From a virus (lineage: Duplodnaviria; Caudoviricetes), in the IMG/VR virus record IMGVR_UViG_3300031705_000005, positions 1 through 53,572 of that record: DNA of 53,572 nt; one strand, written 5' to 3'. Numbering within the stretch: the stretch's first letter is position 1; every line of letters starts with the position of its first letter. A program made the position numbers and the translations under genes. Below the pieces are notes generated by a model, which was not told where the DNA came from, searched no databases, and saw only the letters and a program-made list of their open reading frames with translations. This document shows positions 8,446 to 10,571 of this stretch, one piece after another.

Positions 8446-8477
8446 TTAGGAAATTCAATAATTAATTCGTATATTTG
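8446..8477 (+). promoter_or_regulatory. Promoter of RNA/tRNA cluster
   Basis: TTAGG-N19-TATATTTG. Confidence 0.8.
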
Positions 8478-8490
8478 TAAAAGAAATGAT

Positions 8491-8656
8491 AAAACGGCCT
8501 GATTCCGATGCATAGGATAGGGAACGAAGCTCACGGATGACGGATTTACTTAATATTAAACCTCAACTATCTTCGGATTGATTGAACTGTTAAGTAGATT
8601 GGCTCGGAGGCCGGTCGAATCGTTTGTCGGATTAGTTGGTAACTCTAAGGCGTTTT
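8491..8656 (+). ncRNA. Putative rod-shaped ncRNA (~165 nt, 6S-like architecture)
   Basis: Starts just after the promoter; closing stems 8491-8510/8625-8656; 13-bp helix 8543-55/8588-8600; apical C(UUCG)G at 8571-76. Confidence 0.55.
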
Positions 8657-8669
8657 TAAAAGTTACAAT

Positions 8670-8751
8670 GGAAGAGTGGACAATGGTTGTTAAACTGTCT
8701 TGAAAACAGTCGGGTGTTAAAGCTTTGTAGGTTCGAATCCTATCTCTTCCG
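8670..8751 (+). tRNA. tRNA-Ser(TGA)
   Basis: GGAAGAG/CTCTTCC acceptor, ACTGT-CTTGAAA-ACAGT anticodon arm, long variable arm, GGTTCGAATCC, G73; short D-loop; CCA not encoded. Confidence 0.9.
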
Positions 8752-8881
8752 CAGCGATTGCCTGACTCCTAATATGTACGGCAATAGTCATTTAGATTTT
8801 AGGAAGTCTGAGAATGATACGTTACTAAGGCTCACTTTAGTAGTAGGTACGTTATTGAACATTATGTTAAAACCTACAAAC

Positions 8882-8953
8882 GGCCCGTTCATCTAACGGT
8901 TAGGATATACGGTTTTCATCCGTAAAATGGGAGTTCGATTCTCCCACGGGCTA
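8882..8953 (+). tRNA. tRNA-Glu(TTC)
   Basis: GGCCCGT/ACGGGCT acceptor, TACGG-TTTTCAT-CCGTA, GGGAG-TTCGATT-CTCCC. Confidence 0.93.
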
Positions 8954-8959
8954 CAAAAT

Positions 8960-9160
8960 ATGAAAGATAAGATAATAATTATTCTAACTGCGGGTATTAT
9001 ATTTATACTAGCTATGTTAGTGATTGGGGATTTTATAATTTCCCTAAAAGAAAACAGACCAGCCGATGAATCAATCGTACATTTGGTACAAGTTGCTATT
9101 GCTGGAATTATAGGAATTGTGGGGGGTTACTTCGGTAATAGTAATAATAATAAAATCTAA
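8960..9160 (+). CDS. small two-helix membrane protein
   Basis: Track ORF 8927..9160 starts inside tRNA-Glu; ATG 8960 preferred; two hydrophobic helices. Confidence 0.7.
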   Translation: MKDKIIIILTAGIIFILAMLVIGDFIISLKENRPADESIVHLVQVAIAGIIGIVGGYFGNSNNNKI

Positions 9161-9178
9161 ATAAAAAAAAGGAAAATT

Positions 9179-9412
9179 ATGGATGTAGTAAAATGTTTAT
9201 TAGCAATTAATGATGCAAAGAGTAGTGTTGAGGGAAACGACCCAAGAACATGGATGAAAGCTTGTGCAGAAGAAACTTTAATAAAAGGTAAATCAGGAAA
9301 ACATTTTAAAAAGTGTTTAATAGGTAAGATGGAAACAGCTAAACATCATATAGAAAACCCAGTACAGTATGCTGATGAATTGTATGATAGTATTAAGAAA
9401 TCTTGTAGGTAA
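9179..9412 (+). CDS. hypothetical protein
   Basis: 77 aa with A-rich leader. Confidence 0.7.
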   Translation: MDVVKCLLAINDAKSSVEGNDPRTWMKACAEETLIKGKSGKHFKKCLIGKMETAKHHIENPVQYADELYDSIKKSCR

Positions 9413-9419
9413 CATTAAT

Positions 9420-9492
9420 TGTCCTATGGTGTAACTGGCAACACGTCTGCTTTTGGTGCAGAAGAGTCGAGGTTCGAGCCCTTGTGGGACAA
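9420..9492 (+). tRNA. tRNA-Gln(TTG)
   Basis: TGTCCTA/TGGGACA acceptor, TCTGC-TTTTGGT-GCAGA, CGAGG-TTCGAGC-CCTTG. Confidence 0.93.
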
Positions 9493-9562
9493 CAATAGGA
9501 AGTAAGGTAAGCGCACCTTTTTAATGTCAGAACACATTAAACCTATTTTTTAGTAGTAAATT

Positions 9563-9666
9563 AATAAAGGGGTGAGTGAAACTGATTAAATTGACAACAT
9601 CTGTGGTAAAGGTTAACCCGTCATTCATGCAGTAACCTCGAAAGACCCGAAGCCCCTTTATTTTTT
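9563..9666 (+). ncRNA. Stand-alone copy of the pseudoknotted domain found in the 4044-4514 RNA; closing stem followed by a U-tract
   Basis: Identical blocks of 13, 14 and 31 nt shared with 4344-4409; different but complementary closing stem AATAAAGGGGT/GCCCCTTTATT. Confidence 0.7.
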
Positions 9667-9695
9667 AAAATAAAAGTAAAATAAAGTACATTTAA

Positions 9696-9727
9696 TTAGG
9701 ATTAACCGATATTAATTTGTATATTTG
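9696..9727 (+). promoter_or_regulatory. Promoter
   Basis: TTAGG-N19-TATATTTG preceded by phased A-tracts. Confidence 0.75.
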
Positions 9728-9808
9728 TAAAAGAAATAATTAAAGAGCTTGATTCATTGAGTTAACATTTAGTGAAAGTAAAATAAAAGTAAAATAAAGT
9801 AAAATAAA

Positions 9809-9840
9809 TTAGGATAATTAATAATTAATTCGTATATTTG
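9809..9840 (+). promoter_or_regulatory. Promoter
   Basis: TTAGG-N19-TATATTTG preceded by AAAGTAAAAT repeats. Confidence 0.8.
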
Positions 9841-9847
9841 TAATCAT

Positions 9848-10114
9848 ATGACGTGGGATACTATAAACATAACCGATAAAATACACTACCTAAAGAAATT
9901 AATGGGTAATGCAGTTAAAGGAAACTTTGATGATGGGGATAACCAAATAGTTGATGCACTGATTACCGGTTCTTTAAATGAGTTCTTTGATGATGAATTC
10001 GGATTTGATGTAAAACCTCATCATTTAAAATTTATGAGGGAGTTATGGGATGTTGCGATTGATAATCAATTAGATGAATCAGTTATAACATCGATTAAGC
10101 GGGGGAAGTCTTAG
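9848..10114 (+). CDS. hypothetical protein (near-leaderless)
   Basis: 88 aa; ATG 7 nt after the -7 box; 3' end overlaps the tRNA-Gly gene. Confidence 0.6.
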   Translation: MTWDTINITDKIHYLKKLMGNAVKGNFDDGDNQIVDALITGSLNEFFDDEFGFDVKPHHLKFMRELWDVAIDNQLDESVITSIKRGKS

Positions 10115-10173
10115 GGTAAGATATCTATCATTCCAGATAGAAGGTGTTGGTTCAAATCCAACCCTCCGCTCCA
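10099..10173 (+). tRNA. tRNA-Gly(TCC)-like, 8-nt anticodon loop
   Basis: GCGGGGG/CCTCCGC acceptor, T73, encoded CCA, GTTGG-TTCAAAT-CCAAC T-arm; anticodon arm TCTAT-CATTCCAG-ATAGA. Confidence 0.75.
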
Positions 10174-10219
10174 AAGAGTTTTATGTAGTATATGGCTCTC
10201 TAAAATGAAAACTACTAAA

Positions 10220-10296
10220 GAGAATGATTGAAGCTAATCATAATAAAACCGATGATGTGAACACCTACGGGTAATACAACGCCGGATATTATTCTC
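10220..10296 (+). ncRNA. Structured RNA motif, copy X (precedes tRNA-Gly-like gene)
   Basis: Closing stem GAGAATGAT/ATTATTCTC, TTGAAG, hairpin ATCAT-AATAAAACCG-ATGAT, C(TACG)G hairpin, CCGG. Confidence 0.6.
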
Positions 10297-10302
10297 AATA
10301 CT

Positions 10303-10374
10303 GCGGGAGAAGGGTTAAGAGAAACTCGTTGTACTTCCAGTACAAAGAAGTTGGGGCAGTTCCAACCTCCCGCT
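10303..10374 (+). tRNA. Non-canonical tRNA-Gly(TCC)-like RNA (T-loop GGCAGTT)
   Basis: Full cloverleaf: GCGGGAG/CTCCCGC, GGGT/ACTC, TTGTA-CTTCCAG-TACAA, GTTGG-GGCAGTT-CCAAC, T73. Confidence 0.75.
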
Positions 10375-10376
10375 CT

Positions 10377-10494
10377 AAAAGAACAATTGAAGATTGAGAT
10401 AAAACCGCTCAAGCAATTCGGAAGGTTAAAGCATATAAGACGATTTATCGCATCTGCTAGTTTCCCCGATGGTGTTACCGGCTATTGTTCTTTT
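10377..10494 (+). ncRNA. Structured RNA motif, copy Y (precedes tRNA-Gly-like gene)
   Basis: Closing stem AAAAGAACAAT/ATTGTTCTTTT, TTGAAG, hairpin TTGAG-ATAAAACCG-CTCAA, longer variable arm, CCGG. Confidence 0.6.
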
Positions 10495-10499
10495 CTTAT

Positions 10500-10571
10500 G
10501 CGAGAGAAGGGTTAAGAGAAACCCGCTATACTTCCAGTATAGAGAAGGTGGGGCAGTTCCACCCTCTCGCT
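10500..10571 (+). tRNA. Non-canonical tRNA-Gly(TCC)-like RNA (T-loop GGCAGTT), second copy
   Basis: GCGAGAG/CTCTCGC, GGGT/ACCC, CTATA-CTTCCAG-TATAG, GGTGG-GGCAGTT-CCACC, T73; covaries with the 10303 copy. Confidence 0.75.

Follow-up and report, generated by a model that had tools for sequence, protein, structure and literature searches.

Atypical tRNA-Gly genes in an island of tRNAs, small RNAs and small protein genes of a marine T4-like phage: candidate glycine carriers for Mom

Introduction

Why would a phage keep three genes for tRNA-Gly-like RNAs that look ill suited to the ribosome? The question is raised by IMG/VR virus record IMGVR_UViG_3300031705_000005, all 53,572 bp of which form the window analysed here (29% complete by CheckV). 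The genes lie at positions 8446-10571 of the window, in a cluster of phage tRNAs and small RNAs with small protein genes interleaved, which is called the island below. The features of the island are on the + strand, which carries all large open reading frames (ORFs) of the window. The three genes belong to a family that retains the identity marks of glycyl-tRNA synthetase (GlyRS), often lacks features of decoding tRNAs, and travels with genes of the Mom family of DNA-modification proteins. As the main text of PMC13219725 describes, Mom moves glycine from Gly-tRNA-Gly to adenine in DNA, which was shown in 2026 with host tRNAs only. Here, we propose that the atypical RNAs may carry glycine for Mom, and we weigh this proposal against other explanations.

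Results and discussion

A phage-only family of tRNA-Gly-like genes

Three tRNA-sized copies of 77 nucleotides (nt), at 10098, 10302 and 10499, were returned by a repeat finder as one family (D1), in agreement with the first-pass annotation of the island, which had listed three atypical tRNA-Gly genes. The first gene, W1 (10099-10171), has canonical D and T loops, an encoded CCA and an anticodon loop of 8 nt, CAUUCCAG; ARAGORN reported it as 'tRNA-???' and Rfam matched it with 46.7 bits. The second and third, W2 (10303-10375) and W3 (10500-10572), both have the anticodon loop CUUCCAG and the T loop GGCAGUU, and the D loop of W2 is UAAGAGAA. Neither was called by ARAGORN, which reports W1 alone of the atypical family, and neither had an Rfam match at E up to 10. 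The sequence of W3 differs from that of W2 by compensatory changes in the acceptor, anticodon and T stems. A covariance model of the family, R1, recovers its members at 69-100 bits and gave 69 bits for W1, 98 bits for W2 and 97.9 bits for W3.

Relatives were searched for with short sequence patterns. A syntenic contig carrying two copies in tandem was identified with a 17-mer of the D arm. A 15-mer scan of the T arm returned mostly chance matches, and a 24-mer from the T arm and acceptor was used instead. This 24-mer was found in 34 IMG/VR contigs and at least 116 metagenome contigs, and in none of 185,579 bacterial and archaeal species (one genome each); the family is phage-only. Eighteen distinct copies of 73 nt aligned without gaps to a four-armed cloverleaf with an acceptor stem of 7 bp and a T stem of 5 bp. 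The cloverleaf positions were 97.0% paired, as compared with 82.3% in shuffles and 39-54% with slid partners, and 13 of the 24 pairs had changes on both sides. In the T stem, the pairs are G49-C65 (18/18), U50-A64 or G-C, and U51-A63. Beyond the family, R1 matched only ordinary tRNA-Gly, with about 35-44 bits for GCC and 42-78 bits for UCC, the latter in more distant phages. The pooled R1 hits comprised 97 distinct rows, namely 8 ordinary tRNA-Gly(GCC) and 89 atypical ones; 72 of 80 metagenome loci were included, and L366, L370, L377, L382, L393, L394, L428 and L430 were dropped as presumed duplicates of IMG/VR records of equal length.

According to the account of tRNA-Gly recognition in PMC7826273, the determinants of GlyRS include G1-C72, C2-G71, G3-C70, U73, C35 and C36. 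In the pooled alignment, the 97 rows all share G1C2G3/C70G71C72 and U73, the 89 atypical ones also share C35 and C36, and 88 of these 89 have A37. The atypical rows carry the bacterial GlyRS identity set, and charging itself is predicted. Position 33 was U in 33 atypical rows, A in 49 and G in 4, and 3 rows had an 8-nt loop; U33 is hence absent from 56 of the 89. Position 34 was U or A. The T loop was GGCAGTT in 65 of the 97 rows, a share biased by the T-arm pattern with which the dataset was fished, and otherwise consisted of variants that are not UUCRANY. The D loop of the atypical rows has no GG and reads TAAGAGAA or TAAAAGAA; W1 alone is canonical in both loops.

U33 and the elbow formed by T54-A58 and G18G19-psi55C56 are near-universal in elongator tRNAs. 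Among the properties of elongators, the family shows the cloverleaf and departs from the U33 loop, the T/D-loop elbow and recognition by tRNA finders, although W2 and W3 do have U33 and W1 is set apart by its 8-nt loop. The most telling part of the island is this family, whose features suggest selection for charging and not for decoding. The tRNA-like genes are members of tRNA arrays, separated by 3-5 nt from the adjacent genes, and follow immediately on a promoter or on a conserved small protein gene named ORF88. Another unusual tRNA was seen on the minus strand of the locus L148 (2440-2532), where a 'tRNA-???' of 93 nt reported by ARAGORN has an anticodon of four bases (agta) and lies downstream of a tRNA-Gly(GCC).

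Co-occurrence with Mom

The sole functional link that we found is the co-occurrence of the atypical tRNA-Gly genes with genes for Mom DNA modification. Of the records with an atypical copy, 12 are at least 90% complete, and Mom (PF25680) was present in all of these (G001, G002, G003, G017, G029, G031, G032, G034, G036, G037, G038 and G039). The scores were 117-166 bits against a cut-off of 27.1, with 2-3 paralogues per record, a count that is unreliable for single genomes because near-identical genomes gave 3 and 2. By source, PF25680 was found in G001-G004; of 30 further records, six are at least 90% complete, and it was present in each of these. Another 16 larger records were collected from more distant Mom relatives (52-83% identity), and R1 hits were present in each of the five whose completeness is at least 90%, although the hit in G040 is an ordinary tRNA-Gly. 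Three records, G031, G032 and G034, had been found only via a neighbouring protein and carry two tRNA-like genes each.

The composition of the copies varies among these phages. A copy with the loop CGUCCAG was found in G037; G038 has such a copy together with one bearing the 8-nt loop of W1, and this loop, CAUUCCAG, recurs in three distant Mom-bearing phages, G038 among them. An ordinary tRNA-Gly(UCC) stands beside a family member in G036 and beside a CGUCCAG copy in G039; therefore, the atypical copy is not the decoder there.

As a control, 22 phage records chosen via an unrelated pseudoknot module were examined. Mom was present in only one of them, G054. The R1 matches in the control set were only 30.6 and 27.8 bits, below the weakest atypical copy (46.9 bits), and none of the five complete Mom-less control records had an atypical copy. 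The single Mom match of G054, a complete 346-kb phage, lies at G054:C1:135520-136101 and contains one in-frame TAG, which could reflect stop-codon recoding or a broken gene.

The Mom paralogue of one relative (L174) aligned to Mu Mom (8BV8) with E = 6e-12. Residues equivalent to H58, Y59, R111, S124, D149 and Y159 are retained in it, and R151 is replaced by K.

Possible role of the tRNA-Gly-like RNAs

We propose, at what we judge to be even chances, that the atypical tRNA-Gly RNAs act as private, ribosome-insulated glycine carriers for Mom. Host GlyRS would charge these RNAs with glycine, and the glycyl-RNAs, insulated from translation, would donate it to the phage Mom-family enzymes. These enzymes would then transfer the glycine to DNA adenine, blocking restriction. 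We infer each of the elements of this scheme, that is, the charging, the exclusion from translation, the use by Mom and the presence of mom genes in the window phage. Any counter-defence role of the island would run via anti-restriction DNA modification, and not via decoys for anticodon nucleases or toxins.

Several observations weigh against this proposal. PF25680 was not found in the window's 53.6-kb record, which is 29% complete, and the distance between mom and the tRNA-like genes is 57-70 kb in complete relatives; the window phage is therefore linked to Mom by parsimony only. No R1 copy was found within 3 kb of any of 80 Mom loci, so there is no operon link. Likewise, no tRNA-like gene was found within 1.5 kb of mom in four cultured Mom phages (Polaribacter phage P12002L, Microbacterium phage Lupine, Bacillus phage Riggi and Proteus phage ASh-2020a). 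The 12 of 12 co-occurrences represent few independent events, because all of the genomes belong to one broad phage group. One record, G040, has Mom with an ordinary tRNA-Gly(UCC) only, and G054, also with Mom, has none. Since these two, the four cultured phages and Mu all manage without it, Mom needs no such tRNA; Mu Mom accepts all host isoacceptors, as stated in the main text of PMC13219725. The anticodon loop of W2 and W3 is normal-looking (C32 U33 U34 C35 C36 A37 G38), and no ordinary tRNA-Gly(UCC) was found in the examined DNA of 34 related loci; W2 and W3 could therefore be the phage's decoders of GGA and GGG in spite of their unusual elbow. In addition, the T-stem pairs differ from the weak set of staphylococcal tRNAs described below, and exclusion from EF-Tu is only a proposal.

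We accordingly considered that all of the tRNA-Gly-like genes are working GGA/GGG decoders, whose loop and elbow drifted or were selected to escape host tRNA-cutting defences. In passages on anticodon nucleases, PMC10264068 argues that anticodon-loop changes of phage tRNAs evade these enzymes, which would suit such an escape. U33 and the UCC anticodon of W2 and W3 fit this explanation, as do the 3-5 nt spacing within the arrays, which is that of tRNAs, and the absence of ordinary tRNA-Gly(UCC) from the 34 related loci, in which nearly every other U34 tRNA is present. A gene for a PNKP-type phosphatase (21157-21615), a hallmark of tRNA repair, is present in the window. However, U33 is missing in 56 of the 89 distinct members, and in several phages no copy combines U33 with U34, the loops being, for example, CAUCCAG with UUACCAA or CAUCCAG with CAACCAG. 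Both U33 and the elbow are features that elongators almost always keep. Moreover, an ordinary tRNA-Gly(UCC) is retained beside the atypical copy in G036 and G039, and GGA is a minor codon (22% of glycine codons), yet there are three gene copies. For these reasons we consider decoding a rather unlikely function of the family.

Another explanation, in line with the first-pass annotation, is that the RNAs remain uncharged and serve as decoys for a toxin directed at tRNA-Gly (an anticodon nuclease or a GNAT enzyme) or as handles for RNase P. GNAT toxins that acetylate Gly-tRNA-Gly exist, as noted in the main text of PMC13219725. A retained tRNA shape with lost decoding features is what such a role would leave behind, and the genes directly follow ORF88 and a conserved leader module, R2, so that cuts at their 5' ends would free those parts. 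Nevertheless, a nuclease decoy should mimic the host anticodon loop, and this loop is the variable part of the family; no partner toxin or nuclease was recognised. As for RNase P handles, these could do without the invariant C35, C36 and U73 (89/89), which point to selection for GlyRS charging. Decoys and handles alike seem distinctly improbable to us.

Returning to glycine carriers for Mom, a more elaborate version can be formulated. An entire group of large marine phages would run an orthogonal glycine economy with two or three ribosome-proof sub-types of the RNA (A33/G33 loops, 8-nt loops and the GGCAGUU elbow), with one of the two or three Mom paralogues for every sub-type, and with R2 setting maturation or handover. 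This version is speculative and, on balance, unlikely. If true, it would permit massive DNA glycylation that neither drains nor depends on the host pool of Gly-tRNA for translation. Irrespective of this version, a widespread tRNA-Gly family of phages in which charging marks are kept and decoding marks discarded would constitute the first viral non-proteogenic tRNA, and would account for tRNA-like genes overlooked by standard finders in marine phage genomes. Full-text searches brought up no paper with a title or abstract on such a phage tRNA, and the main text of PMC13219725 mentions neither phage-encoded or viral tRNA nor pseudo-tRNA.

Conserved RNA modules and other spacers

Among the tRNA genes of the island lie six spacers that the first-pass annotation had regarded as structured RNAs. 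It had remarked that nearly every spacer can be folded, which is true, yet is no evidence by itself. It had also made its view depend on the spacers being conserved; conservation was observed for three of the six, and the other three showed none.

Two of the conserved spacers are copies of R2, and the annotated second motif in two copies was recovered by the R2 model at both sites. The first copy (10217-10302) scored 60.6 bits. The second (10376-10499) scored 79.6 bits, has a longer variable insert and has a 94% identical counterpart in L149. The module consists of P1, UURAAG, P2 with the loop AUAAAACCG, a variable part, RCCGGNUAU and P1'. R2 occurs in 20 of the 37 related records, as a single copy except in the window, which has two. 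The closing stem P1 was 98.7% paired, and eight of its nine pairs had changes on both sides; P2 was misregistered in the model-made alignment (62% paired), and its covariation was read by eye only. No Rfam family was matched. Fifteen of the 21 R2 matches end flush at the 5' end of a tRNA-like gene and two at that of a tRNA-Ala(UGC). In L142 (3887-4039), an ordinary tRNA-Ala(UGC) takes the place behind R2 that the second tRNA-like gene has in relatives; therefore, R2 is not strictly tied to the tRNA-like genes.

The remaining conserved spacer is a pseudoknot module at 9567-9659, with the layout P1 - AGUGAARCUG - P2 - RGGUUA ... CAGUAACCYCGAAAGACCCGAA - P1'. The first-pass annotation had described it as a duplicated domain, and indeed its 3' 20-mer recurs in the window in a second copy at 4329-4419. 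The second copy lies in a 620-nt gap (4016-4634) that contains no + strand ORFs of at least 45 amino acids (aa) and has no adjoining tRNA. The 20-mer was detected in 51 IMG/VR contigs, which range from 4 kb fragments to a 346-kb phage. An alignment was made from 21 of 38 distinct locus sequences together with both window copies; L290 was left out, as the rest of the module is absent there and the 20-mer match is likely due to chance. Covariation was observed in P1 and P2. One pair alone varies in the proposed pseudoknot of RGGUUA with UAACCY; it was G..C in 32 of 39 sequences and A..U in 7, and was never mixed (0/39). In relatives, the module fills a gap of 95-96 nt from tRNA-Leu to tRNA-Arg, and no Rfam family was matched by it.

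In all three conserved spacers, that is, the pseudoknot module and both R2 copies, the closing stem joins the spacer's own ends, and the spacer lies flush at a tRNA 5' end. A compact fold placed flush between tRNAs, as in inter-tRNA stable RNAs, is thus found in R2 and the pseudoknot module. Most simply, they would be stable by-products or processing aids. Two uncatalogued families of structured RNA with solid covariation are hereby placed inside phage tRNA clusters.

The other three spacers did not bear out the structures assigned to them. The leader at 8481-8669 (189 nt), annotated as a rod RNA, folds no better than shuffles (z = +0.40; 125 of 200 shuffles were equally good). A natural variant that is abundant in four metagenome runs has 18 differences from it, of which 11 fall in predicted pairs and 8 of these break the pair; only a central hairpin at about 8543-8600 survives the variation. 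The hairpin-rich spacer at 8753-8881, with four hairpins, folds weakly (z = -1.91; 9/200 shuffles equally good). It is dispensable in relatives, as one metagenome contig joins 8753 to 8882 without it. The predicted three-way junction at 9494-9547, which is followed by a U run, is also weak (z = -1.37; 22/200 shuffles equally good), and contigs of relatives diverge past 9493. For none of the three was a relative found among the related loci compared.

These results bear on the possibility that all spacers other than the tRNAs are unselected filler, given that any AT-rich RNA folds. The z-scores and the missing relatives of the three spacers just described agree with it, as do related contigs in which entire spacers are skipped at tRNA borders. 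On the other hand, the recurrence of R2 in 20 of 37 records and the two-sided changes in eight of its nine P1 pairs speak against filler, and so do the 51 contigs with the pseudoknot 20-mer and the covariation of P1, P2 and the pseudoknot pair in that module. The filler explanation is already refuted for three of the six spacers, and as an account of the whole we hold it to be very improbable.

Promoters, ordinary tRNAs and small protein genes

The three promoters of the first-pass annotation were confirmed as three copies of one promoter of the Bacteroidetes type. Copy 1 (8446-8480) has TTAG at -33, a spacing of 20 nt and TATATTTG at -7. Copy 2 (9666-9730) is followed by a remnant of the leader start at 9731-9755, and the repeat finder grouped these repeats as families D2 and D3. 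Copy 3 (9779-9843) heads ORF88 and the tRNA-like genes, and has the same position in relatives. The repeat finder returned the AT-rich promoter region of 65 nt in three copies. A promoter 19-mer occurs exactly at 8462, 9712 and 9825, and two more matches with 3 mismatches lie elsewhere; five matches were reached by none of 100 shuffles. A box of the form TTTG/TTAG-N20-TAnnTTTG stands ahead of the tRNA-like genes or ORF88 in 24 of 34 sources, the window included; the 34 are the mapped sources in which such a gene is seen, and the 35th, L149, has none in its map. Promoters of the sigma-70 type were rejected, as the scan gave 6 sites against 12.1 in shuffles. No terminator-like site was found in a scan of the island.

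Three ordinary tRNA genes had been annotated, and ARAGORN and Rfam agreed on all of them: tRNA-Ser(UGA) at 8670-8752 (Rfam 40.8 bits), tRNA-Glu(UUC) at 8882-8954 (59.1 bits) and tRNA-Gln(UUG) at 9420-9493 (58.2 bits). They fit the commonest codons of the window (TCA 41%, GAA 67% and CAA 75%). For glycine, GGT accounts for 57% of the window's codons and GGA for only 22%.

The first-pass annotation had treated the island as RNA throughout. The RNA parts are present; however, ORFs take up 702 of the 2126 nt, about a third. The first encodes a small membrane protein of 66 aa (8960-9160), with 74% nt identity to L011-L013 and 73% to L014; its translation is conserved, and the differences are distributed over the codon positions as 17/5/28. 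The second encodes a protein of 77 aa (9179-9412), with 72% nt identity to L011-L014 and a conserved translation; its product had no match in Pfam or PHROG. The two match an adjacent ORF pair of L011-L014, and the differences concentrate at third codon positions.

The third is ORF88 (9848-10114), a conserved protein of 84-96 aa with homologues ahead of the tRNA-like genes in many loci. Pfam, PHROG and Atlas gave no lead to its function (predicted local distance difference test, pLDDT, of the Atlas model 0.54). Its stop codon falls within the first tRNA-like gene in 11 of 13 cases examined, the window included, and the acceptor and D arm of that gene encode the final 4-5 codons and the stop of ORF88 (10099-10114 in the window). 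The overlap was also found in L141, L143, L144, L150, L162 and others. With the stop so placed, cleavage at the 5' end of the tRNA-like RNA would yield an ORF88 messenger RNA (mRNA) that lacks a stop codon. In L162, ARAGORN reported a transfer-messenger RNA (tmRNA) with the tag GNTSYAMAA at 2816-3143, just before the ORF88 homologue and 308 nt upstream of two tRNA-like genes.

A polycistronic precursor cut at tRNA boundaries, which would release small RNAs for host takeover or counter-defence, had also been predicted. The layout fits a tRNA-punctuated multi-gene transcript, because promoters head the tRNA runs and the conserved modules lie flush at tRNA 5' ends, so that such cuts would set them free; on the other hand, one third of it would be mRNA for small proteins, and no terminator-like site was found in it. 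Three copies of one early-type promoter would drive transcripts of end-to-end tRNAs, small protein genes and RNA modules, and processing is presumed to occur at the tRNA ends.

The phage and the variation of the island

Contigs of related phages from four metagenome runs join the parts of the island differently, always at or near tRNA borders. The alternative joins are 8492-9791, 8648-8882, 8753-8882, 8944-9420 and 10375-10303. Spacers or the two small ORFs are missing from some of these contigs, and in one a tandem pair of tRNA-like genes is separated by 4 nt. The island's parts behave like tRNA-bounded cassettes.

Pfam matches of window proteins include baseplate gp25, an endonuclease, a primase, an SbcCD-like nuclease, ThyA and a PNKP-type phosphatase, which are T4-like functions. 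A nuclease of 1057 aa has 58-60% identity to the nucleases of G001, G002, G031 and G036; it is collinear with them, and its distance from the tRNA-like genes upstream is equal to theirs. These four are complete records of 173-187 kb, all with Mom and tRNA-like genes, and the nearest cultured relative of the Mom proteins of that group is in Polaribacter phage P12002L (45% identity). The 24 runs that contain the stretch are marine metagenomes, with no RNA run among them. A blastn search of the island against 50,697 phage records gave tRNA-sized matches only and no close relative. The island is the distal part of a tRNA and small-RNA cluster of a T4-like marine phage of roughly 175-185 kb, and the host is probably a member of the Bacteroidetes.

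Two further gene pairs of the window are described here. Downstream of the island, a homologue of thymidylate synthase (10866-11966, 366 aa) matched Pfam in two separate segments, as if about 100 aa had been inserted; the next gene (11968-12372) is small and cytidylyltransferase-like. The PNKP-type phosphatase gene mentioned above (21157-21615) encodes a stand-alone HAD phosphatase (Pfam 114 bits; PHROG polynucleotide kinase). It is followed by an ORF of 362 aa (21837-22925) that had no family match and in which no ligase was recognised; the two are possibly a pair for the repair of tRNA or other RNA.

Comparison with known systems

The tRNA cluster of phage T4 also encodes stable RNAs, species 1 and 2, which are cut from the same precursors as its tRNAs. 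R2 and the pseudoknot module differ from these in sequence and fold. The phage tRNAs treated in PMC10264068 have, in the passages concerned, anticodon loops that differ from those of the host, as do the RNAs described here. However, those tRNAs are ordinary decoders detected by tRNA finders, whereas the present family has lost U33 and the elbow and has kept the synthetase marks.

The Mom-family proteins of the relatives, two or three per phage, resemble Mu Mom (8BV8) in retaining most of the important residues. Unlike these phages, Mu has one mom gene and no tRNA of its own, and accepts three host isoacceptors (main text of PMC13219725). A parallel in gene content is offered by the ssrA islands of Dehalococcoides, in which, as described in PMC3146451, a tRNA-Gly-like 'pseudo-tRNA' lies within the first 150 bp of a mom homologue. 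These islands are mobile elements of unrelated origin, and they too pair a conserved tRNA-Gly-like gene with a Mom homologue. In contrast, the phage genes are 57-70 kb apart, with 0/80 Mom loci having a copy within 3 kb. The passages of that 2011 work that deal with these genes draw no functional link between pseudo-tRNA and mom.

A counterpart of the RNAs themselves is provided by the staphylococcal NP1-NP3 tRNA-Gly, which, according to the sections of PMC7826273 on these tRNAs, donate glycine to FmhB, FemA and FemB in Staphylococcus aureus and S. epidermidis. Judged by the same sections, both groups keep the GlyRS determinants G1-C72, C2-G71, U73, C35 and C36 and have mostly a UCC anticodon. 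Both have a T loop without UUC (UGC/UGU in staphylococci; GGC in the phages, and UGC in one copy of L136) and no GG in the D loop. In both, a sixth pair of the anticodon stem that leaves a 5-nt loop is possible, and an ordinary tRNA-Gly coexists. However, the phage RNAs form a separate, phage-only lineage, and their position 33 is often not U, a feature that the same sections do not report for the staphylococcal tRNAs. The weak T-stem set of the latter (A49-U65, U50-A64 and A51-U63) is not shared by the phage family. The proposed user also differs, as it would be a DNA-modifying GNAT enzyme instead of a Fem peptidyl transferase; no Fem-family match was found among the 49 window ORFs scanned against Pfam. 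The phage family is an analogue of the staphylococcal non-proteogenic tRNA-Gly, and not a member of that group.

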